From positions 1 through 61,867 of the forward strand of contig CAMBPD010000001.1 of NCBI GenBank assembly GCA_945869405.1: DNA of 61,867 bases. Direction: 5' to 3'. This DNA comes from Chryseobacterium gleum (GTDB taxonomy: Bacteria; Bacteroidota; Bacteroidia; Flavobacteriales_D; Sanyastnellaceae). The position numbers were made by a program, and so were the translations under genes. The notes under the pieces are model-generated. The model saw nothing but the letters and a program-made list of their open reading frames with translations, was not told the DNA's origin and ran no database searches. Positions within the stretch are counted from its first letter, which is position 1, and each line of letters opens with the position of its first letter. Positions 1,465-59,869 of the stretch are shown one piece after another.

Positions 1465-3519
1465 CTACTTAGAAGGAACATAATCATTGCTCAACACTCG
1501 GAAAACCGTGCGTCGATTCAATTGATGCGCAGCCTCCTGAAGGTCTTTACTGGTCAGTTTATTGATGTAAGCCTCTGTAAGTTCCTCACCCTTCTTGAAG
1601 CCCGACATATCGCGCTTCAAATTGCGTGGTTCAGTTTCACCTTTACCCAGCGCAACAATACGCTTAGCATCTACTCCCTTTTCTTTAACCAAATAATCAA
1701 CACATGCCTGAGCACGTGCCTGCGATAACACTTGATTGTCTTTGTCCGCGCCACGTGCATCCGTGTGTGCCTCCAATTGAACCACTAGCTTTGGATTATT
1801 CTTCATAATGTCGAAGAGATAATTGAGGGAATCTTTGGAGTTAACCTCTGCATTGACTTGCAATGAACTCTTATTGTAGTCGTAGCGCACCTCTGGCATT
1901 TCTATACCACCCTGACGTGAGCTTGGGTCCGGAATCGGAATGATGAAGTACTCCCTTGCAAAGTTTGTTGATGCATTGAGTCCAACCGTAGAGAGCTTGT
2001 CTGATGTGCCTATGTACTTCTCCTTTTGTACATCAAGCGTATACGTGTAGTTCGAACCGATTTGTGATTTGTCGAAGCTAAAACCTCCGTTGGCATCTGT
2101 ATTCACCTTAAGGTTTACAGGATCGCCAGAGCTACTCGAGCCCACAAGTGTTATTTCACATCCCGCCACCGGTGTGCCACTGTCCTTATCATAGACTGTC
2201 CCCACGAGAGAGAAGTCAAGTCCTGCCTCTACAAATCGATAGATGTCGTCCTTACCCTTGCCTCCAGGGCGATCGGAGGTGATGTATCCTGAAAACGTTT
2301 TGTCGCCTTCCTTCTTTGGATCAATCACAAGTGCAAAATCATTTGAAGATGTATTCAACGGATAATCCACACCTACAGGAGCGTTGAAGGCCATGTCGCC
2401 AGCTTTGGCAGCCTTGAATACATCTAGACCGCCTAGACCTCCCCAACCGTTGGAAGAAAAATACAGTGTTCCATCCGGACCTATAACAGGAAACATATCA
2501 TCACCCTTGGAATTGACCGCAGCTAAATTTTGCGGTTTAGACCAAGTCGATGAATTACGATCGTAGTTGATATACCAAATATCCTTTCCACCCTTTCCAC
2601 CCACCATGTTCGAGGCAAACAACAGATACTTACCATCTGAGGTGAGGAAGGGCTGGCCAACCACCGTGGAATCATCTGAGTTACGATCAATCACATTCAA
2701 ATTTGTAACCTCTGTATACTTGCCATCTGCTTGGCGCGTTGCTCGTGCAATGTCGCAAGCAAAGTAAGCTTTTGCACTCTCGTAACGGCATGAGGTATAG
2801 AGTATGTCGGAATAATCTTTATTAAAACAAGCGGCCCCCTCATTACCCATGGTATTGACACCGCCAGGGAGTGGGCTTGGTATACTCCACTTACCTTTTT
2901 TGTCTTGTTCGGCTGTAAACAAATCCATAAAACTCTCCCCGGTAATCGGATCCTTGTAGGAACCTGCGCTTGATGGTCGCGCAGAAGAAAGCACTACTTG
3001 GCTTGGACCGGAAAACACTAAACCATAATCAAAAAATTCTGAATTCAACTCCACTACATTGGAAACCGTGATGCGTGTTTTAGTCGATTTTTTTGACGCC
3101 GCTTCTTGGGCTGATTTCACGCCTAAGGCAGCTTTCGCCTTGTCGCCACCCTTTGCACTGTATTTGTTGAATTGTGTAACGGCATCATCCCATCGCCCCA
3201 ATTCAAGCAAACTCATTCCGTAACCATAATACACTTCAGGATTAACCTTGTAATATTGAGCGACGATCGCCTTTTCAAACCACTGCAAACTTTGCTGTGG
3301 ATCAGCAACCATGCGATAACACTCGCCCAATCGATAAAATATCCTTGCCTTTTCATCCAATGATTTGGCAATGGGCTCTGCCTTTATATAGAGCTTGGTT
3401 GCCTCATAATAGGCAGCTCTATCGAATTGCTCATCTGCCTTTTTTGTTGGTTGCGCCCAACTTACAATTGCTATCAACATGAAAACTGATGTAGCAAGCA
3501 CTGAAATAACTCTTTTCAT
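1465..3519 (-). CDS. OmpA-family protein with PorE-like architecture (signal peptide, TPR, PD40/WD40-like beta-propeller, carboxypeptidase-regulatory-like domain, OmpA_C peptidoglycan-binding domain)
   Basis: It has a signal peptide (MKRVISVLATSVFMLIAIVSWAQ). TPR-like helices are present (FYRLGECYRMV.., YYGYGMSLLELGRWDDAVTQFNKY). PD40-like repeats are present (SDGKYLLFASN..GGKDIWY, PDGTLYFSSNGWGGLGGLDVF, ITSDRPGGKGKDDIYRF). The CRD reads FSLVGTVYDKDSGTPVAGCEITLVG. The OmpA_C domain reads LEAHTDARGADKDNQVLSQARAQACVDYLV..GKGETEP. Confidence 0.8.
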   Translation of the reverse strand: MKRVISVLATSVFMLIAIVSWAQPTKKADEQFDRAAYYEATKLYIKAEPIAKSLDEKARIFYRLGECYRMVADPQQSLQWFEKAIVAQYYKVNPEVYYGYGMSLLELGRWDDAVTQFNKYSAKGGDKAKAALGVKSAQEAASKKSTKTRITVSNVVELNSEFFDYGLVFSGPSQVVLSSARPSSAGSYKDPITGESFMDLFTAEQDKKGKWSIPSPLPGGVNTMGNEGAACFNKDYSDILYTSCRYESAKAYFACDIARATRQADGKYTEVTNLNVIDRNSDDSTVVGQPFLTSDGKYLLFASNMVGGKGGKDIWYINYDRNSSTWSKPQNLAAVNSKGDDMFPVIGPDGTLYFSSNGWGGLGGLDVFKAAKAGDMAFNAPVGVDYPLNTSSNDFALVIDPKKEGDKTFSGYITSDRPGGKGKDDIYRFVEAGLDFSLVGTVYDKDSGTPVAGCEITLVGSSSSGDPVNLKVNTDANGGFSFDKSQIGSNYTYTLDVQKEKYIGTSDKLSTVGLNASTNFAREYFIIPIPDPSSRQGGIEMPEVRYDYNKSSLQVNAEVNSKDSLNYLFDIMKNNPKLVVQLEAHTDARGADKDNQVLSQARAQACVDYLVKEKGVDAKRIVALGKGETEPRNLKRDMSGFKKGEELTEAYINKLTSKDLQEAAHQLNRRTVFRVLSNDYVPSK

Positions 3520-4223: not shown

Positions 4224-7200
4224 CTAATTCTTGACAACGCGAAATGTTCCCCGTCGCTGACCGTCATTTAATTGCACAAAGTACAATCCTTTCGGGAGTT
4301 GCGCCATCGAAAGTTCAAAAATTTCCGTCTCAGATTTTCTCACCACAATTTTTGAATCCATTCGACGCCCCATCCCATCAAACACGGTGTAGGTCACAAC
4401 CCTATCATAACCCATGGCATCTATATTCACCACACTCTCTGTTGGGTTGGGATAGATGCGAACCCGGTGTGCAGGCAATTCGGCCAGAGAAGTTTCCAAA
4501 TTTGTTTCAAATCTGAACCGGTGAATAATCTCCTTCCCGAAATCACGCTCAAAGCTTTCAAAGTCAAAACCTGCTACTCGATCCAACTTACAGTAACCTG
4601 AACCATCACTGTTGGCAAAAAAATCTAAGCCGTCGTCGTCACTATCTTTTAAATGAAAGGTGTAACATCCAGCGTTGAGTGCAAGAGTGTCCCTATAAAT
4701 CGTTGAAGGCTCTGCAAAGTCATCGCGCTCAAACACTACCTCGTCCCATTGGTTGTAGAGTGTATACGATGACTCCCAGTTGGCGTTGTTTGTGCGCAAA
4801 ATGATTATGATTCGGTTATCATCCAAATCAACATACGAATAGGTCGGCGGGCGATGAAAGACCGATTCCGCATAGTTGTTACTCACATTCTCGTCCACAC
4901 CATCAGTACTTTCGGCTAGTCGAATGTAAAACCGCATGGTCTCGCCATCATCTCCATTCCACAAACTAGCGTCGCCGTAAGTGAGTTCAATCTCTTCCTT
5001 CTCCATAAACCCTAAACTTCCGGTCCATTCCATCTGCTCCTCAACTCCTCCTACAACTCCATAATAAATCGTTTGCTGAGTGAGCGGTTGTGAACCTTTG
5101 TTTCGAAGGATGAAGCGCGGATTATCGCAAATAGGATTCCAGCGCGAATGGATCTTCCAATCACTTGGCGCAGTAATCATATCAATCTCAGGGTCATGGG
5201 CGTGGTTTGCATCGCCGTAGGCAACAAGCGTCCCGAAGAACACATAATTACCATAATCGTTGTAGGTAATATCATAGTCAACCGTAAATGAATCCGTAGA
5301 TGCCACGAACGGGGTCAAATCAAACTCTTTGGTGGTTGAGTTCATTCCCGGACACCACCCTGCTCTATCAAACAACCATGTGCCGCCCTGCGGATAGAGC
5401 GCATTATCCGCGCATTCTTGCATAATGTCCCACGACCAATGCTCTACTCCATTCACCTTCACACTTTGTTGGTTATTGCAAAATTCTGCACAATTGGGCG
5501 GGTTATTAAATTGGTGGCCGGTATTGGTTGAAATCAATTTCCACGATGCCTCACCGTCTTGCTTGTGCACTGTTCGGGCCGCTACTGCATTATCAAAAGC
5601 ACTAAGCCCCTGATTGGTATCCCAAAGAGGTTCCACACGCTTTACATCGTGCGCAGGTGTTCCCTCGATAAAAAGAAACTTCATATCGAGCAGTTCTTGC
5701 CAATTGCCTGATTCAAGCTCTACGGAGTCTCTCAATAGCGGCTCCCAATCCGTTACATCAACTACCCAGGTCCAGCCATCCGAACCTAGATCAAGCTGGA
5801 TCCCATACATGGTGATAAACCGATTCAATTCATATCGGTCGATAACCTCAAAGGGGCGCTGCCAGTAGGTGAAATCATTATTGTTGAGAACGAATTCGAC
5901 GGGGGTTTCTTCAAGCGCTATGGTATCGCCAAGCAACCCTATGGTGAAAGAAGGCTGCACGATCCAATTATAAACTACCGTGAGTGGAATCACACTATAA
6001 TTTTCAGAACCGAATTCCACAATGGACACAGGGGGCACTATTTCTTGCACAGGCCACACCGTCGATTCAATGTGGCTTTGATATGTACCCGTCTTCACTT
6101 GCAGCAATGGCCTTATGGAACCTATTGAGCTATTGCGCCATAGCTCATCGCCACGCAAAGAAATTCGATCAGCGTTTCCATGCATCCAAGCATGGTTTCC
6201 ATTTCCACTTGCGTCCAACACCATTTCTCCATCATCCTCATTAAATTGATAATACGCTTGCAGATTATTCCAATAGGGATGATCCATTGTGAGGTCTCTA
6301 TTCACCCACTGCGCAATTGTAGCTTCATCAAGCGCTGCATTGAATACAGCAAATTCATCTATGCTACCCGAATAGAAGTTAGACCAACTTGTAGCCCCGC
6401 CAATACTGAAGCGCTGGATGTCGAGCATCAAATTGTCGAGGTTAGCACCGACATGCCAAAGAGCACCGTTCAAAAAAATCTTCATTTCTCCGGAAGAGGC
6501 ATTCTTGGTAAAGGCCCAGTGATTCCATCCACCTTCGAAGTCCTGCGGAGTAGCTAATTTATTGATTCGATCATACCCTCCATTGAACCCTGCATCCCAA
6601 TACACATTCGAATTGCTCCATGGCAAATGCACATTGAGCACGCGTTGATTGAGTGTATTTACGCCTTCGAAAATGGTTCCATTTTGCGGCTGAACGTCGG
6701 CATCGCCCTTTTGCCAAAGCATGATGGTTACTTCGCTGCTCACAGACTCAAAAACCTCGCTGGGCACCTTCACCTCATCCTGCCAATCCATGTGCATATA
6801 TCGATCTGTTCCTTGATAGGTTAATGTCGAGGAAAAGTCTGCGACAGCAGCCTGCCATTGGGCATCAACCGGGGTTTCACTGTTAGACCACGTTATGCGA
6901 ACCACCAATGAAGAAAATCCATCCCATTCCCAATTACTGAGTAAATTAAGATCGCTCCATCCCTGAGCACTTGGCAATACATGCGCATCAAACAAGGTTG
7001 TAAATGCCGACTGCGTCAATTGCTCTGAAACAATTGTATCTGACGTGATTGCCAGTTCAATTTTGAAAAAATCCGTTCCGCTAGGAGCGTTTACGAAAGC
7101 CAACGCTAGACGTGAAAGAGAATCTCCAGCCAACAACCCTTGGGCCAACAACTCTTCCGCCCTATACAACAGCAACGTTTGAGCCGATGTTCCGGAAATA

Positions 7201-7706
7201 GCCTGAGCAGAAAAGGCATTCACATCGTCACCGAGAGTGTAGGTGTTTTCCTCTAGAACATTATCAAAAACACGAACCGTCTGGGAAAACTCCCGTGTAA
7301 TCAGGATAGGCTGCGAAGTCATCGCGACGGAATCAAAATCCGCGTTGTTTACGAAATATTGCGGATGCTCAGACAGCGTGCTATCTATTGCTCCGGTATG
7401 GTCATATAAATATGTGTAAGAGAGATAGTCCCACTCGCCACAGGGGTACCCAAGATTACCCGCCGTTCCATCCTCGAAGCATTTCAAGTTATAGTACATG
7501 AGTATTTTCTGATAATCAACACCATTATTACTCTGTGGAAAGTTGAACCAGCGCCGACCGGGTGAGTCATAGGCTGCGGCCGGATTGTTCTGAGCTTCCC
7601 ATGTAAACGTTTGGACGATGGATGTATCTGCTACTTGCGCTGTAACAACATTCGATATGCTGCAGTACAGACCAAGTAAAATCAAAAATACAGAGGGCTT
7701 TCTCAT
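4224..7706 (-). CDS. secreted PNGase F-related protein with an inserted LamG/concanavalin-like domain and a type-A T9SS C-terminal sorting domain
   Basis: The signal peptide is MRKPSVFLILLGLYCSISNVVTAQ. PNGase F-like motifs are PCGEWDY (aa 88-94), RYELNRFITMYG..VDVTDWEPLL (aa 624-658), NCAEFC (aa 738-743) and FDRAGWCPGM (aa 779-788). The LamG-type segment ends ..FSIGGATSWSNFYSGSIDEFAVFNAALDEATIAQW (aa about 325-470). The CTD reads RIYPNPTESVVNID...GLYFVQLNDGQRRGTFRVVKN. Confidence 0.75.
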   Translation of the reverse strand: MRKPSVFLILLGLYCSISNVVTAQVADTSIVQTFTWEAQNNPAAAYDSPGRRWFNFPQSNNGVDYQKILMYYNLKCFEDGTAGNLGYPCGEWDYLSYTYLYDHTGAIDSTLSEHPQYFVNNADFDSVAMTSQPILITREFSQTVRVFDNVLEENTYTLGDDVNAFSAQAISGTSAQTLLLYRAEELLAQGLLAGDSLSRLALAFVNAPSGTDFFKIELAITSDTIVSEQLTQSAFTTLFDAHVLPSAQGWSDLNLLSNWEWDGFSSLVVRITWSNSETPVDAQWQAAVADFSSTLTYQGTDRYMHMDWQDEVKVPSEVFESVSSEVTIMLWQKGDADVQPQNGTIFEGVNTLNQRVLNVHLPWSNSNVYWDAGFNGGYDRINKLATPQDFEGGWNHWAFTKNASSGEMKIFLNGALWHVGANLDNLMLDIQRFSIGGATSWSNFYSGSIDEFAVFNAALDEATIAQWVNRDLTMDHPYWNNLQAYYQFNEDDGEMVLDASGNGNHAWMHGNADRISLRGDELWRNSSIGSIRPLLQVKTGTYQSHIESTVWPVQEIVPPVSIVEFGSENYSVIPLTVVYNWIVQPSFTIGLLGDTIALEETPVEFVLNNNDFTYWQRPFEVIDRYELNRFITMYGIQLDLGSDGWTWVVDVTDWEPLLRDSVELESGNWQELLDMKFLFIEGTPAHDVKRVEPLWDTNQGLSAFDNAVAARTVHKQDGEASWKLISTNTGHQFNNPPNCAEFCNNQQSVKVNGVEHWSWDIMQECADNALYPQGGTWLFDRAGWCPGMNSTTKEFDLTPFVASTDSFTVDYDITYNDYGNYVFFGTLVAYGDANHAHDPEIDMITAPSDWKIHSRWNPICDNPRFILRNKGSQPLTQQTIYYGVVGGVEEQMEWTGSLGFMEKEEIELTYGDASLWNGDDGETMRFYIRLAESTDGVDENVSNNYAESVFHRPPTYSYVDLDDNRIIIILRTNNANWESSYTLYNQWDEVVFERDDFAEPSTIYRDTLALNAGCYTFHLKDSDDDGLDFFANSDGSGYCKLDRVAGFDFESFERDFGKEIIHRFRFETNLETSLAELPAHRVRIYPNPTESVVNIDAMGYDRVVTYTVFDGMGRRMDSKIVVRKSETEIFELSMAQLPKGLYFVQLNDGQRRGTFRVVKN

Positions 7707-24055: not shown

Positions 24056-24297
24056 TGTAGGTCGCTATAATAAGACACAAGATCCAATGAAATTCGAGTC
24101 ATAGTGACCCGTGAAGCGCGCAAATCACATCCGAGTTCAGATGCTCTCGGCAACTGCCTACAATTGGGTATTTGACTATATAACTCCATAACTAGATTCT
24201 GGTCGCTTCGAAAGTACAGTAAATGCAATCATCATAAATCACCACACCACTGTTAATGCGAAAACCTCTTATTTTTACGGCCTATTCAAAATTAATC

Positions 24298-25275
24298 ATG
24301 AGAGAAATTCAATTCCGTGAGGCTATATGCGAGGCGATGTCCGAAGAAATGCGCCGCGATGAGTCAGTGTTTTTACTTGGGGAAGAGGTTGCTGAATATA
24401 ACGGAGCCTACAAGGCTTCAAAGGGCATGCTCGATGAATTCGGAGCGAAGCGAGTGATAGACACCCCCATTGCCGAGCTAGGTTTTTCTGGTATTGCCGT
24501 TGGCGCCGCCATGAATGGTCTGCGACCCATTGTTGAGTTTATGACTTGGAATTTCGCCATACTTGCTGCTGATCAAATCATAAATTCTGCTGCAAAAATG
24601 CTGCAAATGAGTGGTGGACAGTATAACGTCCCGATTGTATTCCGAGGTCCAAACGGAACAGCTGGTCAATTGGCAGCTACACACTCGCAAAGTTTCGAGT
24701 CGATGTATGCGCACATCCCTGGATTAAAAGTTATTACTCCATCAAATCCATATGACGCGAAAGGTCTTTTAAAGGCAGCTATTCGCGACAATGACCCAGT
24801 AGTGTTTTTTGAAAGTGAGAAGATGTATGGCGATAAAGGGCTTGTGCCAGATGGTGAGTATATCATTCCAATCGGATTGGCCGACATCAAGAGAGAAGGA
24901 ACTGATGTTACCTTGGTCTCCTTTGGGAAAATAATGAAGACTGCTCTGGCGGCGGCAGCTGAGCTCGAAAAAGAAGGCATCAGCATGGAAGTAATCGATT
25001 TACGTACCATCCGTCCGTTGGATATTGACACCATCGTTCAATCCGTAAAAAAGACCAACCGCCTTATCATCCTAGAAGAGTCTTGGCCCGTAGCAAGCAT
25101 TTCGACAGAGATTGCATACCGTGTGCAACGTCATGCGTTCGATTATCTCGACGCACCTATTCGTCGCCTTACTCAAACAGATACTCCACTCCCCTTCGCA
25201 ACAACACTTATAGATGCCGCACTACCTCAAATAGCTGACGTAGTTCGCACTGCGAAAGAAGTTTTGTACAAATAG
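24298..25275 (+). CDS. pdhB: pyruvate dehydrogenase E1 component beta subunit
   Basis: MREIQFREAICEAMSEEMRRDESVFLLGEEVAEYNGAYKASKGMLDEFG..RVIDTPIAELGF matches E1-beta. The start is at ATG 24298. No E1-alpha gene is adjacent. Confidence 0.85.
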   Translation: MREIQFREAICEAMSEEMRRDESVFLLGEEVAEYNGAYKASKGMLDEFGAKRVIDTPIAELGFSGIAVGAAMNGLRPIVEFMTWNFAILAADQIINSAAKMLQMSGGQYNVPIVFRGPNGTAGQLAATHSQSFESMYAHIPGLKVITPSNPYDAKGLLKAAIRDNDPVVFFESEKMYGDKGLVPDGEYIIPIGLADIKREGTDVTLVSFGKIMKTALAAAAELEKEGISMEVIDLRTIRPLDIDTIVQSVKKTNRLIILEESWPVASISTEIAYRVQRHAFDYLDAPIRRLTQTDTPLPFATTLIDAALPQIADVVRTAKEVLYK

Positions 25276-25288
25276 TACTATGTCAAAT

Positions 25289-25320
25289 AAAAAAAAGCCG
25301 CTTCGAGCGGCTTTTTTTGT
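25289..25320. terminator. bidirectional rho-independent terminator between convergent pdhB and the cytochrome gene
   Basis: The sequence is aaaaaaaa-agccgc-ttcga-gcggct-ttttttt: a 6-bp GC-rich stem flanked by an A-run and a T-run. Confidence 0.7.
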
Positions 25321-25340: not shown

Positions 25341-27329
25341 CTAGCGTCGCACAACACGTTCTACCTTACGACCTCTTGAGGTTTGTACATCCAACAAATA
25401 CGTACCTACTATCAAGGGCAAGCGCACTTGCGACTTGGAAGAATTAGGGCGCAGCGTATCCACCAACTTACCATCCAGACTATACACCTGAATCGATTGT
25501 ATGACATCGCGGTTCGCATTTACCTGCACGAATCCATTGGTAGTTGGATTGGGTGAAATACTAAACAGTTGACTCAACTCACGCACACCCGATATCGTTG
25601 TATTGATTGAATGGCTTGCCATTTCTACAGGGTCTGGACCTTCCTGCCAGTACATTTCTTCGAATGAATTAATCAAGGGATGGTCCATGGCAAACATTTC
25701 CTCGTTCCACTTAGGCGGCAATGACTGATACCAAAAGCGAGCAGTCACCGTAATGCTTCCAGACACACCTTGCAATGGGATATGATAGCGCACATCGTCG
25801 GTACCTGAACCCTCAACACCATTCAGAGCGTTGAAATTGAAATCACTCGCCGCTGCTCCGACAACCATAGTCGTGTCGTAGACCGCATGAGTGGTGCTGA
25901 AGCCGGTTGGCACAAGACGATTATCCTTTATCATGTGATGTGCTCGTTCGAGTACAGTAGTGACATTACCCATCACATCGCCCATCACCATTTCGTAGAT
26001 CTGAACCTCGTTCGCATCATCACTGATCATATCGTAATGCGGTTCCCACGCGGGGTCTTGACCCTGTACCTCGAAATCCGGATTGACACGACCCGAATGA
26101 AATACTTCATTGCCATCCTCATCAACTGCGACGAATTCAATGAAGGCACGGCGAGCCGGATAACCGCTAGGCATTTTGTGTCCTGCTTTGTTACTCACGC
26201 GCACTGTGAAACGGGCAGTATCTGTATCCACCACTCCTTGAATGACCTCTATCTCCGCAGTGTGATTCTGGAGATTATCCAATGTGCGATCGATAACTGT
26301 TTGGAAATGGTCCTCAGTGGCCGTGATGCCTAATTCATCTATTCTATTTTTCATCAGCTCGAGCATGAAGCTATTGCCACCCACAAGCCAATGCTGCGCA
26401 AACGGATCTCGCCCTGGTAGCCAGTCGTAGCCTGAAGCAATAATTACTGGCTCCTCAGTCTTTGGCATGTGGCATCCTTGGCATTCCAATGCGTTAAAGT
26501 CTTGAGTGTTGTATGAGCTATTCAGCCATTCGTGATAAGTTGCCTGCTCAATGAAGGTTGTACCTGTAGCATTTCCTTGTAAATCGGCAGTATTGGTTAT
26601 GAGTGAATGACAACCCGCACAACTCTCAGACTTCGAAGCCTTCGGATGCGCTACAGGAGCCACACCCACGAAATTCGACATAATAAAATCTTGCAGTGGC
26701 AAGCCATTCTTTGGTATGTTGAACACTGGACCCCAAATGGTATCGGGGTTATAGTGCAACTCTCCAGAAAAAGAAAGTCCAACAGTTTCGATTTGTTGCG
26801 CATGGCATGCCATGCAACTTACCCCGTCGAGAGCAATCGAATCAACGTCGAGCATGTCTGTAGTGTAAAACTCAACGCCGTCGTGCTCTGCCTCAAATCT
26901 TCCCATTGGCGCATGGCATGAGGTGCACTTGTTGGTGAGCTCACCCGCGTGACCCGGGTTAACCAACGTTTCGTGAGCCAACTTTGCTCTCCACATCGGA
27001 TCCTTGGCAGAGTTTGCCATCATGGTTGCACGCCAATTTTCCGCTGGGCCAACATTCTCACCCGAACCATCCACAAGAGCCAACGGTGGATTGGCGATAT
27101 CCATGTCAACACCGTGACAGCCCGCGCAACGCCCAGAACCCATGAACATGTCTGAGGAGCCGGTTGGCAAATCACCCACTAAACTTCTGTACCCTCCCAT
27201 TTCTTGGGCCGAGTGATAACTCTTGGGTTTACGTTTCTGATGAGCTGCTGTAAAGACAACAAATACCAAAGCGGCCGCTGTGAGCACACCAAACTTTGCC
27301 ATTGCTGTAGACTTCGTCCAAAACTTCAT
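25341..27329 (-). CDS. multiheme (five CXXCH) c-type cytochrome with a type-A T9SS C-terminal sorting domain
   Basis: CXXCH motifs are CAGCH (aa 68-72), CTSCH (135-139), CMACH (172-176), CAGCH (237-241) and CQGCH (283-287). An N-terminal hydrophobic segment (FGVLTAAALVFVVFTAA) is present. The C-terminus reads FSISPNPTTNGFVQVNAN..VYSLDGKLV..GTYLLDVQTSRGRKVERVVRR. Confidence 0.8.
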   Translation of the reverse strand: MKFWTKSTAMAKFGVLTAAALVFVVFTAAHQKRKPKSYHSAQEMGGYRSLVGDLPTGSSDMFMGSGRCAGCHGVDMDIANPPLALVDGSGENVGPAENWRATMMANSAKDPMWRAKLAHETLVNPGHAGELTNKCTSCHAPMGRFEAEHDGVEFYTTDMLDVDSIALDGVSCMACHAQQIETVGLSFSGELHYNPDTIWGPVFNIPKNGLPLQDFIMSNFVGVAPVAHPKASKSESCAGCHSLITNTADLQGNATGTTFIEQATYHEWLNSSYNTQDFNALECQGCHMPKTEEPVIIASGYDWLPGRDPFAQHWLVGGNSFMLELMKNRIDELGITATEDHFQTVIDRTLDNLQNHTAEIEVIQGVVDTDTARFTVRVSNKAGHKMPSGYPARRAFIEFVAVDEDGNEVFHSGRVNPDFEVQGQDPAWEPHYDMISDDANEVQIYEMVMGDVMGNVTTVLERAHHMIKDNRLVPTGFSTTHAVYDTTMVVGAAASDFNFNALNGVEGSGTDDVRYHIPLQGVSGSITVTARFWYQSLPPKWNEEMFAMDHPLINSFEEMYWQEGPDPVEMASHSINTTISGVRELSQLFSISPNPTTNGFVQVNANRDVIQSIQVYSLDGKLVDTLRPNSSKSQVRLPLIVGTYLLDVQTSRGRKVERVVRR

Positions 27330-27385: not shown

Positions 27386-27682
27386 TCACCAAACTTCCAA
27401 CTTCTCGATGCCGTTGTCGCCAAGCAATTCATTGATTGCATCAACCAACTTTGTTTTTTGATAGGACAACTCTTGCTTAAGTGGGCCGCTGTCCATTTTC
27501 AGCACTAGCGTTTTCCCATGCAACTTGCTTTCGCGTGTCTTCTTCCAAATTATCTCGCCAACTACCTCTCTATAACAGCGCAAAACCTCCATTTCTTGGT
27601 AACGCTGTTCCAAGCCACTGCTGCGTAAGAGTTCGGAGATTAGCTCCTTGAGAGGAATATCAGTGTATTTGCGTTTCGACAT
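27386..27682 (-). CDS. DUF721 domain-containing protein (the small protein usually found downstream of recF)
   Basis: It reads MSKRKYTDIPLKELISELLRSSGLEQRY..VVGEIIWKKTRESKLHGKTLVLKMDSGPLKQEL. The position after recF is typical. The start is at the internal Met (27682). Confidence 0.65.
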   Translation of the reverse strand: MSKRKYTDIPLKELISELLRSSGLEQRYQEMEVLRCYREVVGEIIWKKTRESKLHGKTLVLKMDSGPLKQELSYQKTKLVDAINELLGDNGIEKLEVW

Positions 27683-27708
27683 CGCTTCAAATATCGGTTG
27701 GAAAACGC

Positions 27709-28821
27709 TTACAAAGCTTCCAGTTTTCCACCATCCACTTTCCATGATTGGACCGTTAGATTGGACTGGCGCAACACCTCAGGCATTCGTTCCGAACTTA
27801 TATCGGTGATAAATAGTTGGCCCACGTCGTTGCGCGAAAGCCAGGCTATGATATTCGCAACACGGCGCTCATCAATCTTATCGAAAAAATCATCGAGCAG
27901 TAAAATGGGTTTTACCAAAGCGGCATCCTTCAAAAAAAGATATTGGGCAAATTTTAGGGCAAACAAGAATGACTTCTGTTGACCTTGCGATGCAAATTTC
28001 TTCAAAGGATGACCGCCGATCAAGAAATCAATATCATCGCGGTGCGTGCCCGCCGAGGTTCGTTCAAGCTGTCGGTCGCGCCTGCGGTTGCGTTGAAGCA
28101 ACTGCTCCATAGTATGCTCATTGAGCTCCGAATCATACTTGAAAGAGACCTCCTCTTGCACAGACACAATTTCTCTGTAAACTTCTTGAAAAACGCGCTG
28201 AAAATCCTTCAAGAAGGACGTTCTAGCCTCATGGATAGACGCTGCACGTTCAATCAACTGAACATCCCAAATCTCAATAAACTCATCGGGAAAATGAACG
28301 TGCTTAGCATAGGTTTTCAGGACTGTATTTCGTTGCAGTAAAGCATGATTATACGCCAAGAGATCATCGAGATAGCCTTTCGACAATTGTGCCAACGTGC
28401 TATCCAGAAACTTCCTACGCACCTCGCTTCCCTCCCATATTAGCTCAATGTCGTAGGGCGTAATCATGACGCACGGCAGCAAACCAATATGCTCCGAAAG
28501 ACGATCATACTCCTTATGATTTCGCTTGAAAATTTTACGTTGATTTCTGCGGACTGAACAAATGATTTGCTCTGGCTGATCCTTGCGCACAAACTCTCCG
28601 GTAATAGCAAACTGATCGGTATCGAATCGGATGTTCTGCGAGTCTATGGGGTTGAAATAACTCTTGCAACTGCACAAGTAATAAATCGCATCGAGAAGAT
28701 TCGTTTTTCCTGAACCATTCAGCCCCAAGAAGCAAATCGCCTGTGCATCCACTTGAATAGACAACTCTTCGTAATTTTTGAAGTTGTAAAGCGTCAATTT
28801 TTGCAAACGAAGTTCTTCCAT
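27709..28821 (-). CDS. recF: DNA replication and repair protein RecF
   Basis: LTLYNFKNYEE..FLGLNGSGKTNLLDAIYYL (Walker A), ..SQGQQKSF (signature) and ..PILLLDDFFDKIDERR (Walker B) match RecF. Confidence 0.9.
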   Translation of the reverse strand: MEELRLQKLTLYNFKNYEELSIQVDAQAICFLGLNGSGKTNLLDAIYYLCSCKSYFNPIDSQNIRFDTDQFAITGEFVRKDQPEQIICSVRRNQRKIFKRNHKEYDRLSEHIGLLPCVMITPYDIELIWEGSEVRRKFLDSTLAQLSKGYLDDLLAYNHALLQRNTVLKTYAKHVHFPDEFIEIWDVQLIERAASIHEARTSFLKDFQRVFQEVYREIVSVQEEVSFKYDSELNEHTMEQLLQRNRRRDRQLERTSAGTHRDDIDFLIGGHPLKKFASQGQQKSFLFALKFAQYLFLKDAALVKPILLLDDFFDKIDERRVANIIAWLSRNDVGQLFITDISSERMPEVLRQSNLTVQSWKVDGGKLEAL

Positions 28822-28826
28822 AACCG

Positions 28827-31800
28827 TCAATACCATTGCACGCTAAAGTCTGTTGAACCAGCGCCAAAATTCACGAACTCTCGATTGAGTTCCTCCAAGT
28901 AGAGATATTCCTCATCCAACTCATGGATTGCATCCTCATCGTCATCTAACACTACCATTCTATCCGACTCAATAAACAAGGGCCATGCATTCGAAATCTC
29001 GTTCGCATCAAATGCAAAGACATGTCCAAGCCACTGATTTGATGACGCCTTAAAAACCTTGTAGTAGTGAACATCCAGCACAACACCGCGGATTTCCTTT
29101 TGACATTGATGCAGCAACAATACTGTGTCGATGCGCTCATCTTCCGATTGAAACCGATTCTTTAGGTATAGCTCTGCCAAAGAAAACCTTGTTGAAAGTT
29201 GGCTGGGCATTTTGTTCGTCGCTGCATGATCCCAGAGTAGGTTGTAGACCTCGTGAGCTTGATCATCCATTCGAATCAGCGTATGAAGCAGAGAATCTGA
29301 AGGCACATTATTGTGATCCCAATTGAAGCGTGCAATATCCAACAACAGCGTGCCTTTGCGCGTGGTGTCTAGTTTTTTGAAGAATGCATCGACATCCTTT
29401 TCTTTTCTGAGCGGCTGAAGAATAGAGCAAAAGTCAAGTAGGATGTCGGAATTCAAGCCATAACCTTCTTCGGTACTGCTCTTGAGTCGCTTCCATTCAT
29501 TTCGCGCTTCCACAAGAATCTGAGGCACGAGATAACGGTATGCTGATGTTGGAAGCCAACCACTATCCACAGCCAACGCCATCAAATGGTAAATACTCTC
29601 CTCGTATTCATCGATTGCCAGCAATTGCATAAGCTGGGGAATTAGTGGTGCGGCCAGACGAACTGAATCAAACAATACCTCGCAACCACTCCCACCCATT
29701 TCATCAAAAACTATGGGTGGCTCCTCGACAACCAGTCGAGCGTATGCCTTCCAGGCCTTGCCCGTTTTTATGCGAAGCAAAGTCGTAAGCAGGTCATATT
29801 GATACGCTGCACTATCAGGGTATTCAGCAAATTCCTTTGCGAGAAAATTGATATTGGCTGAAGACGTATCTGCAGCAAGTCCTGAAATAAGTTTTTCCTT
29901 GATGAGCCCTGCCTCTTCGCCTTCGAAGTAAGGAAGCGTCTTAATCAGCTCACGCATTCGCTGCGCAGAACCCTGCGAAAAATCCATTTCGCTAGTTATT
30001 TCGAGGGCTCGTTGACGTAACAGCGAGTCATCGGAAACCAATGCCTTGAGGTAGGCTTCGTCGCGCTGATCGAAGTGCGGGTAAGGAAAAATGGTGTCGT
30101 TCGAGCGGAAATTATCGAATGCATTTATTACAAAATCAGAAAGGCCAACGATTGAATCGTAGCAAGTGGAGAGATGATAAAATGATTTGTTGTGCAGCAC
30201 CATACGATGCTTAAAACGCCTTGTTGTGGAAGCGTCGCCCACAATGAATTCAAAAACAGCCCCGACATCTGTCCATTCTGCAGTCTGGCGAATCATCATC
30301 ATGTCGAGGCCGAGCACACGCTCACGCTTTTCGCGCAAAAAAGCATTCCTATCTTCCCCATCAGAGTATTCATGATAGCGCTGAAAATCAATTTGAATTG
30401 ACTGAGCATCTCCGGGTGGATTCAACACTATTGAAGCATTTGTGCCGAATGGCGAATCTTGCTCAGACTCTAAGTCAGCATTGAACAACATCGCATCCAA
30501 CGACACCTTCGGCTCTATAGGAATGTAGGGCAGCGTTGTAGTAAAACACAGTTCTGAGTTTTGGTACGTTGTAAATTGGTTGTATGTGGAATGCCCAATT
30601 GTGAGGGAGCTAAACCAATCGCTTCTGCTTTTCGCATCCTCGTCGTTGGTCGACAACACAACGTAGCTCAGAGCATGAATAACAAACAGTGCGTGCACGG
30701 TATAGACACTACCCTTCAAAACAGACTCAAGTGCGGGAAGGCCATTGTGCTCTTTGATAGTAAATGAGACACAGCTAAAGTTATTGTCACTACAGAAGGC
30801 TTTCAGAAAGCGCCTCAACTCGTAGTTATCCTCATCCAAAAACCCAGGACATTCAATAACATGTCGCTGAAGCATATAGAACGCCCCGTTTGTTTTTCTC
30901 GTCGCAATAACTTCCAAGTCAGCGGTGCGAGTGAGCGCATTGGAGGACGCATAGCAAATGCCCTGCGAGGGTAAATTGACTTGTAACGAACCATCTGCAG
31001 ATGCCCATCGGTTACTTTGCTCAGCACTGTCGTGAATTTTAATGCCTTCAAAAAAAGAAGCACCATACCCTTGCATCACTTTTTCACCCGTTGCCTCGAG
31101 TTTAAGTATTAGGATTTCATCGGGCAATACGATGACTTGCTGGCGCTGGTAATCGCCGCGCCTCGTTCTATTAATGACCTCAATCCCTTCATACTTCCCC
31201 TTGGTAATAATACTTTTAGACACCACCTCGCCGGCCACTGTTTCATACATCATGCTGTCTAGCATCGCCAACAACTCATTGGCTGCGGTGCCTGTTAGGG
31301 CCGAATATGACTTCATGCGGGTGATCGTGAAGTTGGCGCCATTGGCGATATCAAGGCATAACCAGGTGCTCGACTCCCGGCTGGAAGCAGCGTGATAAAG
31401 GTGTGCCGGAACATTGGTGGTAATACGGCCATCCGATGTTGTAAACGGAGTAAACGCACGCTGATATATTCGTCTATCTAATTCTTGGCGACGCTTGGCA
31501 TTTCGGGTCCCCTTGTTGACAGGGGTAACCTCATATCCCAAGGATCTTAGTGTCTCGATAACGCCGCCGTTTCCTGGCAGGTGAGCACATCCCATTGCCG
31601 CAAAAACCGATTTCCCTGCGCGCAGCAGACTGTCGATGTTGTGCACAAACAACTTATTACGCTCCAATAAAATGTATGTCCGAAAGGCCTTGGAGGCTGT
31701 TGATCGTGTGAGGGAATCTATCAAGTCTAGATCTTGCCTGCGGTAGGCGGGTTCCAACTGACTTGTTAGTTGTTCAAACTCCAGAATATCACCCTCGTCC

Positions 31801-32441
31801 CATTCCCGTCGATCCTCTTGGCGAGCACCTTCAATACTCGCCTTGCGAATAAAATCGTCGCTTTGAGCGTAGGTCTCAAGACCCAGCGTCTGAAGTCCCA
31901 TCTTCTTGGCAGCTTGATAGATGTGCATATCAAGCCAGGTATCCTCCTCAAAGTCTACAGCACCACTTCCTTCGCCGTAGCGAAACATCAGATAATTGAG
32001 AACAGCGGGGTCGTAGAGCAGTGCCTGGCGCACTCTCTCGTTGGCGCTTTGGACGTTTGACCCACTCCAAAAACCGCGCAATGGCGGCAGCGGTGAATCG
32101 TCCACAAACTCCTCAAAGTATTCTTCTTCTGCAGAGCTACTACCTAGCCATGAAGCTACCTGTGGGTCACTGAACAATGCTTCAAACCAAGCCTCTGGTT
32201 CCAACTCAAGAGCCACTACATCCACAGACTGCATTGCATCGTAGAAAGGATCGCCTAATTGGAAAGCCACCTTCCCGCTGATGTGCATAGTGCCATACAC
32301 ATAAGATGGCTCCCGTAAATTCGTACCCTCTACCTTCCAAAGAAGACTTTGATATTGGGCTGGGGCACTGAGGCACAGACCCGTAATAAAAACAGCGAAA
32401 ACAAGGGCTTTACGGAGGTCTATATACACTAAACGATTCAC
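28827..32441 (-). CDS. very large secreted TraB/GumN family protein (N-terminal roughly 310-aa TraB/GumN domain plus about 900 aa of unassigned sequence)
   Basis: It has a signal peptide (..VFAVFITGLCLSAPAQ). TraB/GumN hallmarks are LLWKVEGTNLREPSYVYGTMHI, ..VVALELEP.. and ..VFAAMGCAHLPGNGGVIETLRSLGYEVTPV. The start is a GTG at 32441. I recognise no motif in the remainder. Confidence 0.65.
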   Translation of the reverse strand: MNRLVYIDLRKALVFAVFITGLCLSAPAQYQSLLWKVEGTNLREPSYVYGTMHISGKVAFQLGDPFYDAMQSVDVVALELEPEAWFEALFSDPQVASWLGSSSAEEEYFEEFVDDSPLPPLRGFWSGSNVQSANERVRQALLYDPAVLNYLMFRYGEGSGAVDFEEDTWLDMHIYQAAKKMGLQTLGLETYAQSDDFIRKASIEGARQEDRREWDEGDILEFEQLTSQLEPAYRRQDLDLIDSLTRSTASKAFRTYILLERNKLFVHNIDSLLRAGKSVFAAMGCAHLPGNGGVIETLRSLGYEVTPVNKGTRNAKRRQELDRRIYQRAFTPFTTSDGRITTNVPAHLYHAASSRESSTWLCLDIANGANFTITRMKSYSALTGTAANELLAMLDSMMYETVAGEVVSKSIITKGKYEGIEVINRTRRGDYQRQQVIVLPDEILILKLEATGEKVMQGYGASFFEGIKIHDSAEQSNRWASADGSLQVNLPSQGICYASSNALTRTADLEVIATRKTNGAFYMLQRHVIECPGFLDEDNYELRRFLKAFCSDNNFSCVSFTIKEHNGLPALESVLKGSVYTVHALFVIHALSYVVLSTNDEDAKSRSDWFSSLTIGHSTYNQFTTYQNSELCFTTTLPYIPIEPKVSLDAMLFNADLESEQDSPFGTNASIVLNPPGDAQSIQIDFQRYHEYSDGEDRNAFLREKRERVLGLDMMMIRQTAEWTDVGAVFEFIVGDASTTRRFKHRMVLHNKSFYHLSTCYDSIVGLSDFVINAFDNFRSNDTIFPYPHFDQRDEAYLKALVSDDSLLRQRALEITSEMDFSQGSAQRMRELIKTLPYFEGEEAGLIKEKLISGLAADTSSANINFLAKEFAEYPDSAAYQYDLLTTLLRIKTGKAWKAYARLVVEEPPIVFDEMGGSGCEVLFDSVRLAAPLIPQLMQLLAIDEYEESIYHLMALAVDSGWLPTSAYRYLVPQILVEARNEWKRLKSSTEEGYGLNSDILLDFCSILQPLRKEKDVDAFFKKLDTTRKGTLLLDIARFNWDHNNVPSDSLLHTLIRMDDQAHEVYNLLWDHAATNKMPSQLSTRFSLAELYLKNRFQSEDERIDTVLLLHQCQKEIRGVVLDVHYYKVFKASSNQWLGHVFAFDANEISNAWPLFIESDRMVVLDDDEDAIHELDEEYLYLEELNREFVNFGAGSTDFSVQWY

Positions 32442-34045: not shown

Positions 34046-34237
34046 GAGCAGGTTAAATTGAGAGGTTTATTGTGATGTGTGTGTTAACACGCTGCTAATA
34101 TAGAATCGATAGCACGGGTGATTTGTGTGCAACTCACATTCTTTTGCTCACAACTTTTCAACCATAAAAAACAGAGTACTCAATCCGCTAGCAATGCGCC
34201 ACTTGGCCTAACTTGCGATTCTAAAGATTTCAATTTT

Positions 34238-35302
34238 ATGTCGAAACTATTTATAATCGCTCTTTGCCTTGCATGGTTCAACGTGCATGCTCAGATTACC
34301 ATTAACAGTAATCACTTGCCGACGGGAGGAGACTTGTTGTTCGCCCGCTCTGCAACCTTTCTCACCAACGTTGACCTTGAATCTACAGGGCCCAACTACA
34401 CTTGGAATTTCGGTTTCGATGTGCTTGAACCAGGCGCGCTTGATGCAGGAACGGACTGCGCACCCTTGAGTTCTCTTTCCTTGGTAAATCAATTGTTATT
34501 CAATAATTTTCTTTACCCAGAATACGACTCAGACTTTGGTTTAGGAACGACGTTAATTGACAATCCATTCATCGCAATTGAAGATGCCTATCAGGTTTAC
34601 AAAAACAGCGGTGGCGTATATGGAGTTACCGGCCTCGTGGCAACAGTAAGCGGATTTCCATTAGCCGCTCAATTTGACGATAGGGACATAATCTACAACC
34701 TTCCCCTCACTTACCCCGCATCTGGCAATTCGCACTCGGTACTCTCGCTTGATGTTCCTAATGTGGCGTACTACGGAACCGATCAATACCGAAATTACAC
34801 GTGCGATGGATGGGGCACTATAAACATCTATGGTCAATCATACGATGTGCTGCGCGTAAAATCGATAGTAACTGGTTTTGATTCGGTGGCCGTAAATTTC
34901 AATGGAATACCACTTGGCTTTCAGTTCCCAAAAGACATTACAACCTACCAATGGATAAGCACATCTTTTAAGCTTCCTGTGCTCGAAGTAGTTTCGACCG
35001 CGGGTGGCATCGGAGGCGACCAACTAACTGTTCGCACTGCCGATATAAATGCCGTTGGTCTTGCTGAAAGAAATATGGGTACATTGAGCATCTACCCAAA
35101 TCCTGCGGGTGATAGGCTTTTCATCAACAGCTCCTCACCAAACGCAAACTACAGTTTAGTAAACGCTGCTGGGGTTCTTGTAGGCTCAGGTCGCATGGAA
35201 AGCAGCTCTATTGCTACTGATCATCTCGCGCCGGGTATGTATTTCCTACGCGTTCAAAACGAAAACCTAACCTATCTGCAAGGAAGTTTTGTCAAGCAAT
35301 AA
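34238..35302 (+). CDS. hypothetical secreted protein with a type-A T9SS C-terminal sorting domain
   Basis: The signal peptide is MSKLFIIALCLAWFNVHAQ. The CTD reads LSIYPNPAGDRLFINSS..YSLVNAAGVLV..GMYFLRVQNENLTYLQGSFVKQ. The start is at ATG 34238. Confidence 0.7.
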   Translation: MSKLFIIALCLAWFNVHAQITINSNHLPTGGDLLFARSATFLTNVDLESTGPNYTWNFGFDVLEPGALDAGTDCAPLSSLSLVNQLLFNNFLYPEYDSDFGLGTTLIDNPFIAIEDAYQVYKNSGGVYGVTGLVATVSGFPLAAQFDDRDIIYNLPLTYPASGNSHSVLSLDVPNVAYYGTDQYRNYTCDGWGTINIYGQSYDVLRVKSIVTGFDSVAVNFNGIPLGFQFPKDITTYQWISTSFKLPVLEVVSTAGGIGGDQLTVRTADINAVGLAERNMGTLSIYPNPAGDRLFINSSSPNANYSLVNAAGVLVGSGRMESSSIATDHLAPGMYFLRVQNENLTYLQGSFVKQ

Positions 35303-59817: not shown

Positions 59818-59869
59818 AGAACTGGGTTTCATAGTGCTTGACAGCAGGTTTTGATGTTAAGTTGCTTGG

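Follow-up and report, generated by a model that had tools for sequence, protein, structure and literature searches.

What function does a five-heme c-type cytochrome serve when its polypeptide chain ends in a sorting signal of the type IX secretion system (T9SS)? This question is raised by a gene on contig CAMBPD010000001.1 (positions 1 to 61,867), and we refer to this entire 61.9-kb stretch of DNA as the window. The gene is a complete open reading frame (ORF) with an ATG start codon; it encodes a protein of 662 amino acids that joins a pentaheme c-type cytochrome to a type-A T9SS C-terminal sorting domain (CTD). Extracellular multiheme cytochromes are normally tied to anaerobic metal reducers, where they occur as lipoproteins delivered by type II secretion or as filaments. 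An initial annotation of the window had cast the protein as a candidate cell-surface electron-transfer protein, by analogy with the cytochromes that serve extracellular electron transfer (EET) in Shewanella and Geobacter. Our analysis places its heme-bearing core in the PHC superfamily and makes export across the outer membrane likely. The reading that we favor, evenly poised in our judgment between right and wrong, is that of a T9SS-exported catalytic pentaheme PHC enzyme with a remodelled heme-2 site and a small soluble extracellular substrate.

The five heme-attachment motifs start at residues 68 (CAGCH), 135 (CTSCH), 172 (CMACH), 237 (CAGCH), and 283 (CQGCH) and cover nucleotides 26469-27128, exactly where the initial annotation had put them (amino acids 68-287); a peptide that it had quoted, SNKAGHKMPSGYPARRAFIEF, is found at amino acids 379-399. 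When all six frames of the window were scanned, this ORF was the sole open frame of at least 80 amino acids bearing any C-X2-4-CH motif. The five motifs can thus not be attributed to chance, because no other frame contains even one. All five are invariant across 37 aligned homologues and are present in 79 of 80 genome loci that encode relatives of the cytochrome. The protein contains exactly 10 Cys residues, those that bind heme, and the same holds for most of the 37 aligned homologues and for 44 of the 79 full-length proteins from the related loci. No conserved Cys outside the CXXCH motifs was found among the aligned homologues and the 80 loci.

The helical heme domain scores above the cutoff of the Pfam Cytochrome_C7 model (34.9 bits; cutoff 24.8). 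In a Foldseek comparison of the AlphaFold2 model (mean pLDDT 74.6), the best match in the PDB was the low-potential pentaheme cytochrome c552 of Thermochromatium tepidum (5ze8; E 1.2e-11, 524 aligned columns, TM-score 0.63 normalised to the target), to which the window protein is 18% identical. A single-protein sequence search touches c552 and MccSep (9WT8) weakly, while a profile that includes more distant relatives (A2) matches 5ze8 with an E-value of 4.2e-11 and 9wt8 with 2.5e-8. The NCBIfam model for ExtKL (NF040886) aligns with amino acids 131-415 (E 8.9e-6), with 24.5 bits against an equivalog cutoff of 250. Cytochrome c552, ExtKL, GSU2801, and proteins of cable bacteria have been grouped as the "PHC" family, whose small and large forms are both viewed as putatively catalytic and as possessing a pentacoordinate heme (PMC11976967). 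The core of the window protein, a five-heme cap followed by a β-sandwich, is a member of this superfamily and not a new kind of cytochrome. Its β-sandwich is modeled with pLDDT values mostly between 85 and 95.

With c552, the window protein has in common five c-type hemes in an N-terminal helical domain, the Ig-like β-sandwich that follows, an H-x-x-P-x-G-x-P loop, and a W-x-x-S/T-M-[H/M]-A motif. In contrast to it, c552 is a soluble protein of about 400 amino acids that has no CTD, has a β-sandwich shorter by about 100-130 amino acids, carries Ala in place of Tyr390 and His in place of M104, and has a Cys on the loop that connects hemes 4 and 5. PtdA of the marine ptd cluster is a further uncharacterised PHC member. 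Like PtdA, the large PHC proteins (lPHC; GSU2801 and the lPHC of cable bacteria) are uncharacterised five-heme proteins with a C-terminal β-sandwich. None of these has been described with a T9SS CTD, and the ptdA gene lies beside a porin gene and genes for other multiheme proteins, whereas the window gene does not. The large type is described as having a bigger cytochrome domain than the small PHCs, and the family of 987 sequence clusters to which the window protein belongs (see below) probably corresponds to it. In the literature, GSU2801 appears in omics tables alone.

The relative most informative for function is MccSep/ExtKL, which a study of 2026 described as a tetrameric polysulfide reductase of the periplasm, built from a five-heme helical "cap" and an Ig-like "stem" (PMC13510729). 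Structure and mutagenesis place its active site at selenocysteine U325, located on a loop of the stem, and at C239, a ligand of heme 2; four hemes are fully ligated, and the special heme 2, whose pocket is reached by the U325 loop, is the catalytic one (PMC13510729). The window protein belongs to the same superfamily, has five hemes and an Ig-like domain as well, and contains a clearly homologous loop (AGHKMPSG-Y390-PARR versus AGHSIPDG-U-PTPNR in MccSep and PHAMPTGAP in c552). MccSep, however, comes from sulfur-reducing Desulfobacterota and Nitrospirota and not from Flavobacteriales. In the alignments, Y390 takes the place of Sec325, the C239 loop is matched by T255/G256, and M104 stands where MccSep has H74 and c552 likewise a His. 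Neither Sec nor Cys was found in the D-G-[U/C]-P loop: the position is Tyr in all 80 related loci, where the loop reads GHK[FLM]PSGYP without exception, and Y, F, I, or H in the relatives that have no CTD. Since both catalytic residues of MccSep are absent, the window protein is not a polysulfide reductase; the polysulfide mechanism depends on Se-S and Cys chemistry and therefore cannot operate in it. Together with the ExtKL score far below cutoff, the exchange of Sec for Tyr390 and the missing Cys ligand of heme 2 rule out an MccSep orthologue.

What has taken the place of these residues? Apart from the CXXCH motifs, the family-wide invariant positions are W99, D110, P111, E261, Q262, E267, S271, H313, N319, G383-H384-K385, P387, P391, R393, R394, S412, G413, H431, Y445, K468-D-N-R471, P474, G476, D496, and D511. 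The helical domain contributes the W99-R-x-T-M-M104-A-N motif, E261-Q262, and H313 (QHWLVGGN), and the β-sandwich contributes H431, Y445, K468-D-N-R471, D496, and D511. M104 and M217 are each conserved in more than 90% of the sequences (M217 in 98%). The W-x-x-S-[IM]-H-A motif of c552 and MccSep, with H74 of MccSep as its His, reads W99-R-A-T-M-M104-A-N in the window protein; given that M104 stands at the position of a ligand His, one of the bis-His hemes of the solved relatives is probably His/Met-ligated here. As judged from the alignments, M104, H313, H384, and H431 can supply the sixth ligands of four of the five hemes, a number that fits MccSep, in which heme 2 is the one that stands apart. 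In the window protein, heme 2 would have no Cys ligand, face Tyr390, and lie among E261, Q262, K385, R393, R394, and K468-D-N-R471. Several assignments were tried and given up. A universal role of Tyr390 as catalytic residue or heme ligand is weakened by the Y, F, I, or H found at this position in CTD-less relatives; H266 (EQATYHEW) was rejected as a family-wide heme ligand, as it is Leu in most non-CTD relatives; and a guess from offsets that R100 equals R83 of MccSep was dropped, R83 falling near W113/R114, where the alignment is unreliable.

The second component of the protein, its sorting domain, is equally well defined. The CTD scores 37.6 bits with TIGR04183 (cutoff 23) and falls just below the cutoff of Pfam PF18962 (24.3 versus 27), a model for which many of the homologues have a precomputed hit. 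Its predicted fold (pLDDT about 90) superimposes on CTDs that were solved bound to the translocon: 8gl6_D, the RemA CTD, with a TM-score of 0.82 and a root-mean-square deviation of 1.7 Å, and 8gl8_D with 0.80 and 1.9 Å; 8qb1_A was also matched, and a profile of the family (A1) matches the solved CTDs 7pzj, 5jvk, and 8glk_D. Profile and Foldseek searches, which the initial annotation had suggested, thereby uphold its assignment of a type-A CTD to the last 75 or so amino acids and identify c552 as the structural relative of the five-heme core. Within the family, P593, N594, P595, G620, G642, and Y644 of the CTD are invariant; the PNP motif is present in 77 of 79 full-length copies, and the invariant motif residues are kept across sequences that are merely 43-50% identical.

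At the N-terminus, inspection by eye revealed a putative export signal with a basic n-region (K2, K6, K12), a hydrophobic core of 17 amino acids (FGVLTAAALVFVVFTAA), and, in the alignment, a conserved Ala-Ala at the likely signal-peptidase I site; AlphaFold models a helix from residue 3 to 29. This segment contains no Cys and hence is not that of a lipoprotein. Selection acts on the CTD throughout the family, which makes export across the outer membrane the likely fate of the cytochrome, as far as can be judged from its sequence. The genome probably uses the T9SS, to judge from genes elsewhere in the window. One of them codes for a 684-amino-acid OmpA-domain protein (418 bits, below the NF052230 cutoff of 600) that is probably a PorE-like, peptidoglycan-anchoring component of the host's T9SS; four others code for further T9SS cargo proteins, two with a type-A CTD (1160 and 394 amino acids) and two, encoded by adjacent genes, with a type-B CTD, one of these with a choice-of-anchor L domain. 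This survey of T9SS genes covered the window, which includes none of the core genes (sprA, porV, gldKLMN, porU). In its CTD family, in its fold, and in the expected Sec-then-T9SS route, the cytochrome resembles ordinary type-A cargo such as glycoside hydrolases, peptidases, and adhesins like RemA, from which it differs in that its passenger is a covalently heme-loaded redox protein. In the literature, we found no paper that links the T9SS with multiheme cytochromes and no heme-loaded redox protein described as T9SS cargo, in line with the statement of the initial annotation that no such protein is known to have been characterised functionally. A large-scale survey of outer-membrane multiheme cytochromes mentions neither Bacteroidota nor the T9SS (PMC11475568).

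How widespread is this combination? A word-indexed search returned at least 2260 clusters of relatives at 90% identity. Nearly all of the best 120 measure 645-690 amino acids, some fragments of 450-625 amino acids aside, and those that carry a name are annotated as "T9SS type A sorting domain-containing protein" from Flavobacteriales metagenome-assembled genomes (MAGs). In a scan of GTDB with one genome per species, at least 521 species had a relative. Almost all of the best 80 belong to Flavobacteriales, Crocinitomicaceae, Cryomorphaceae, or Saprospiraceae, and the sources given in their record titles are lakes, rivers, ponds, glacier-fed streams, and activated sludge. Locus L042 ("Flavobacteriales bacterium DA487", 48% identity) seems not to stem from a MAG. 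Three bins labelled Comamonadaceae or Gammaproteobacteria (L010, L038, L041) contain Flavobacteriales-like cytochrome genes with a CTD (49-65% identity), most likely on mis-binned contigs rather than through horizontal transfer.

An exhaustive search of 1.84 billion representative sequences with a hidden Markov model yielded, at 50% identity, 987 clusters with a threshold of E <= 1e-30 and 2519 with one of E <= 1e-10. Among the best 150 of the 50%-identity matches, about the top 55 cover the CTD, while from about rank 70 downward the matches score 360-440 bits over profile positions from about 50 to 568 and stop at the end of the core. Among the matches listed, the CTD is thus confined to the Bacteroidota branch, which also shows many clade-specific substitutions in the core, and most 50%-identity clusters are without it. 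The CTD-less relatives stem from Deferrisomatales, Thermodesulfobacteriota, Phycisphaerae, and others, and many resemble lipoproteins with Pro/Thr/Glu-rich tethers. The initial annotation had held that its idea would fail if the homologues were periplasmic and the orthologues generally devoid of the CTD. The picture is divided: the solved relatives are periplasmic or soluble and most clusters of the wider family have no CTD, whereas the CTD is nearly universal in the Bacteroidota copies examined.

In relatives, the fusion partners of the core include a PQQ-type glucose/sorbosone dehydrogenase (in some cases along with an F5/8 type C domain), DUF642 plus dockerin, Calx-beta or Ig-like domains, a class-I cytochrome c, a TauE-family transporter, a metallo-beta-lactamase domain, and FN3 repeats with a T9SS CTD. 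In P0186 (941 amino acids, Phycisphaerae) and P0194 (1142 amino acids), the core is followed at its C-terminal side by the dehydrogenase β-propeller; P0194 further carries an F5/8 type C (discoidin-like) domain and ends in a hydrophobic-basic tail that resembles PEP-CTERM by eye alone. This arrangement looks like a natural "quinohemoprotein" architecture, of which we found no description. P0224 (760 amino acids) joins a TauE/SafE-family transporter to the pentaheme core, and in P0237 the partner is the metallo-beta-lactamase domain.

The gene contexts of the CTD-less relatives are similarly varied. In a Thermodesulfobacteriota MAG (L081:5153-9695), the gene for P0232 follows genes for MerR, NosL, and a three-domain multicopper oxidase at a gap of 8 nt, with ABC and RND efflux genes downstream, a context that resembles copper or metal homeostasis. 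In L082:5605-9761, the cytochrome gene shares 4 nt with a TauE gene that lies downstream of a metallo-beta-lactamase-rhodanese (persulfide-dioxygenase-like) gene. The TauE contexts of P0224 and L082 hint that some of the CTD-less relatives have to do with sulfite or sulfur oxyanions. Other contexts feature an upstream class-I cytochrome c, ABC transporters, or cadherin-like proteins, and no single substrate emerges from the heterogeneous surroundings of the five non-CTD relatives that were inspected. The variety of fusions and neighbors in other phyla suggests an extracytoplasmic redox module that works with varied partners. The T9SS fusion would then be the Bacteroidota-specific deployment of this widespread pentaheme module, which in other phyla, too, is often coupled to surface-targeting or partner redox domains.

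On the basis of these data, we envisage the following scheme for the exported enzyme. The cytochrome would leave the cytoplasm via Sec and receive its hemes in the periplasm; the T9SS would then move the already folded protein across the outer membrane, where it would be released or remain attached to the surface. There it would act as a catalytic redox enzyme rather than as a mere wire. Its substrate would be small and soluble, for instance peroxide, another reactive oxygen species, or an oxyanion of sulfur or nitrogen, and its electrons would come from or go to partners outside the cell and not the respiratory chain. That many Flavobacteriales and Saprospiraceae of lakes, rivers, and activated sludge (mostly MAGs) use the T9SS in this way, placing a heme-loaded and catalytically active cytochrome outside the outer membrane independently of any conduit, is a more far-reaching proposition that we offer tentatively and consider doubtful as it stands.

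Several points weigh against this scheme. M217 could ligate heme 2 and leave no open site, and the clade-specific H39, H119, and H266 could close the heme-2 site as well, which would turn the Bacteroidota clade into pure electron carriers. Because the wider family has Y, F, I, or H where MccSep has Sec, Tyr390 need not be catalytic, and the heterogeneous gene contexts of the non-CTD relatives point to no single substrate. The AlphaFold model of the heme domain is of low confidence (pLDDT 35-55) over amino acids 45-71, 182-240, and 263-284. The mature N-terminus is unusually basic (HQKRKPK), which is atypical right after a cleavage site. Moreover, an extracellular enzyme that has no visible supply of electrons is mechanistically incomplete.

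The main alternative, unlikely in our estimate, is that the protein catalyzes nothing and serves as an extracellular relay or shuttle, with all hemes six-coordinate, between secreted redox proteins such as T9SS-dependent cupredoxins, sugar dehydrogenases, or oxidative polysaccharide degraders. An analogy is offered by the cytochrome domains that supply electrons to lytic polysaccharide monooxygenases of fungi or bacteria. The three extra His residues just mentioned could complete the six-coordination of every heme, and in the fusions with PQQ-type dehydrogenase and F5/8 type C domains (in Phycisphaerae and another lineage) the cytochrome is most simply the acceptor of the dehydrogenase. The fusion to DUF642 plus dockerin in another lineage, and the class-I cytochromes c that are fused or adjacent in relatives, are likewise in keeping with a relay, and in 12 of the 80 related loci a cupredoxin with a T9SS CTD is encoded one to two genes away from the cytochrome gene. 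In the Flavobacteriales loci, however, no gene for a dehydrogenase or a lytic polysaccharide monooxygenase is linked; the cupredoxin is limited to one sub-clade and is encoded on the opposite strand; and many invariant polar residues that are not heme ligands find no explanation in a pure relay. The fusions of relatives with PQQ-dehydrogenase and cytochrome c, for their part, fit an enzyme and a relay alike.

The cupredoxin deserves a brief description. It forms cluster c7 (L055, L061, L063, L066, L068, L070, L071, L073, L075-L077), is a plastocyanin-like protein of 207 amino acids (e.g., L073:11183-11806, minus strand), and its gene adjoins those for two peptidases (an M28 peptidase bearing a CTD and a DPP-IV-like one) and for a diheme lipoprotein that resembles cytochrome c peroxidase. 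This cupredoxin may be a second exported redox protein.

We consider it improbable that the protein is what the initial annotation had in mind, a T9SS-delivered surface terminal reductase or oxidase of respiratory EET, comparable to MtrC/OmcA or to the Omc proteins of Geobacter and directed at Fe/Mn minerals, humics, or electrodes. It is indeed a multiheme cytochrome with an outer-membrane export tag and, like MtrC, OmcA, and MtrF of Shewanella, presumably bound for the outer face of the outer membrane; PF22113 (MtrC/MtrF domain II/IV) gives a weak, sub-threshold match (26.8 bits versus a cutoff of 30), and PHC-fold relatives include ExtKL of a Geobacter porin-cytochrome cluster, PtdA with its neighboring porin, and, more remotely, the archaeal nanowire protein AvECN. 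ExtKL, however, has turned out to be a polysulfide reductase of the periplasm and not a component of a conduit, and 97% of the MccSep homologues are predicted to be periplasmic (PMC13510729); the closest solved relatives, c552 and MccSep, are themselves soluble or periplasmic. The Shewanella proteins differ from the window protein in having ten hemes in a staggered cross with flanking β-barrel domains, as opposed to five, and in being lipoproteins delivered by the type II system and encoded with an MtrA/MtrB conduit. Neither the window nor the 8 kb on either side of the gene in the 80 related loci contain a gene for a porin, a periplasmic multiheme cytochrome, or a quinol dehydrogenase, and five hemes outside the cell are unable to span the outer membrane. 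To judge by the sources given in record titles, most hosts are from lakes, rivers, ponds, and activated sludge, and the invariant polar residues of the pocket suggest catalysis over simple electron hopping. Of the initial label, "cell-surface electron-transfer protein", the export half therefore stands as likely on account of the CTD, while a respiratory EET role is without support. Membership in the MtrC/OmcA family can be ruled out by the five hemes, the missing N-terminal Cys, the sub-cutoff models (PF22113, see above, and TIGR03507 with 11.8 bits versus 209), and the lack of a linked conduit in the window and the 80 loci. The same applies to NrfA, octaheme reductases, and HAO: all motifs are CXXCH with no CXXCK, PF02335 scores 15.8 (cutoff 24.1), and the NrfB-type model scores 11.5 (cutoff 184).

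Least probable in our view is that the protein is a periplasmic enzyme whose CTD works poorly or is used just for quality control or turnover and whose job, e.g., sulfur oxyanion redox chemistry, is that of its CTD-less relatives: the location of the closest solved relatives, the many clusters with no CTD, the sulfur-related contexts of P0224, L082, and P0237, and the PF18962 score just under the gathering threshold speak for this, but the CTD exceeds the NCBIfam cutoff and has the fold of translocon-bound CTDs, its motif residues are kept in highly diverged sequences, a useless tail of 75 amino acids would not persist in more than 500 species, and the clade-specific core substitutions in Bacteroidota are consistent with a changed role.

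The genetic surroundings of the cytochrome gene (Table 1) offer no clue to its function. As the initial annotation had noted, the gene stands alone: a bidirectional intrinsic terminator (AAAAAAAGCCGCTTCGAGCGGCTTTTTTT; a 13-bp stem flanked by A and T runs) separates it from the convergent gene for pyruvate dehydrogenase E1-beta, a gap of 56 nt (27329 versus 27386) separates it from dciA/DUF721 and recF, and the window contains no ccm gene, porin gene, or other cytochrome gene. Such isolation argues against a dedicated trans-outer-membrane conduit. ORFs were called and clustered in the 80 related loci, each covering 8 kb on either side. The order ribH, TPR-like protein, recF, dciA, and cytochrome is kept in about 35-40 of them, down to about 47% protein identity. 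In several loci the gap between dciA and the cytochrome gene is zero or negative, so that co-transcription with recF-dciA is likely, at least there. The downstream genes depend on the clade and encode a GNAT acetyltransferase (with a 4-nt overlap), a biotin carboxylase, or an M28 peptidase with a CTD. A heme-maturation (ccm) gene was found neither in the window nor in any of the 80 loci. Function can thus not be predicted from the operon, as the conserved neighbors in Bacteroidota (ribH, TPR-like, recF, dciA) are housekeeping genes and the downstream genes are variable. A scan for sigma-70 promoters gave no more hits than shuffled sequence; by eye, the 56-nt gap contains a near-match, though no full match, to the Bacteroidota -7 element (TATTTTTC).

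Two observations on the adjoining genes may be added. As called from their first possible starts, recF and dciA overlap by 37 nt (27709..27745), and the true start of dciA may lie further downstream. Directly upstream of recF, a gene encodes a protein of 1204 amino acids with an N-terminal TraB/PrgY/GumN-family domain (amino acids 33-307); its remaining 900 or so amino acids have no Pfam or NCBIfam match, and the protein recurs in 11 related loci (cluster c10, about 1210 amino acids).

Table 1. Positions in the window of the cytochrome gene, its parts, and the neighboring or T9SS-related features
Feature	Coordinates	Strand	Basis or remark
Pentaheme c-type cytochrome gene with T9SS type-A CTD	25341..27329	-	complete ORF, 662 aa
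N-terminal export signal (aa 1-~29)	27243..27329	-	by eye from sequence and alignment
Five-heme α-helical domain (~aa 60-330)	26340..27152	-	motif positions, alignments, Pfam
CXXCH motifs	27114-27128, 26913-26927, 26802-26816, 26607-26621, 26469-26483	-	
Loop G383-H-K-M-P-S-G-Y390-P-A-R-R394	26148..26183	-	HMMER alignments with MccSep and c552 loops
C-terminal Ig-like β-sandwich of PHC fold (~aa 355-580)	25590..26267	-	AlphaFold, Foldseek 5ze8
Type-A T9SS C-terminal sorting domain (aa 591-660 of 662)	25350..25559	-	TIGR04183, profile, Foldseek
Bidirectional intrinsic terminator	25290..25318	.	between cytochrome and E1-beta genes
Pyruvate dehydrogenase E1-beta gene	24256..25275		convergent with cytochrome gene
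dciA/DUF721	27386..27745	-	directly upstream of cytochrome gene
recF	27709..28836	-	upstream of cytochrome gene
Gene for 1204-aa protein	28827..32441	-	directly upstream of recF
Gene for PorE-like OmpA-domain protein	1465..3519	-	684 aa
T9SS cargo gene	4224..7706	-	
T9SS cargo gene	34118..35302	+	
T9SS cargo gene	57961..59832	-	
T9SS cargo gene	59870..61825	-	

What is new in this locus is the combination of a multiheme c-type cytochrome as T9SS cargo, an altered active site, and broad conservation in Flavobacteriales: a cofactor-rich cytochrome has been joined to a sorting tag specific to Bacteroidota, and this fusion has been kept across the at least 521 species-level genomes. If the protein is exported together with its hemes, the cargo range of the T9SS would extend to covalently heme-bound multiheme redox proteins, and a large and abundant group of polymer-degrading heterotrophs would carry out redox chemistry outside the cell. 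The activities that may then come into play are the turnover of peroxide or reactive oxygen species, redox reactions of sulfur or nitrogen oxyanions or of iron, or the supply of electrons to secreted oxidative enzymes that degrade polymers. Such a protein would also provide a tractable entry into the function of the large PHC family, which comprises about 1000 clusters at 50% identity and of which MccSep is the sole relative with an established activity. The replacement of the Sec/Cys pair by a Tyr with no accompanying ligand, and of a ligand His by Met, points to new heme-site chemistry in a known fold.

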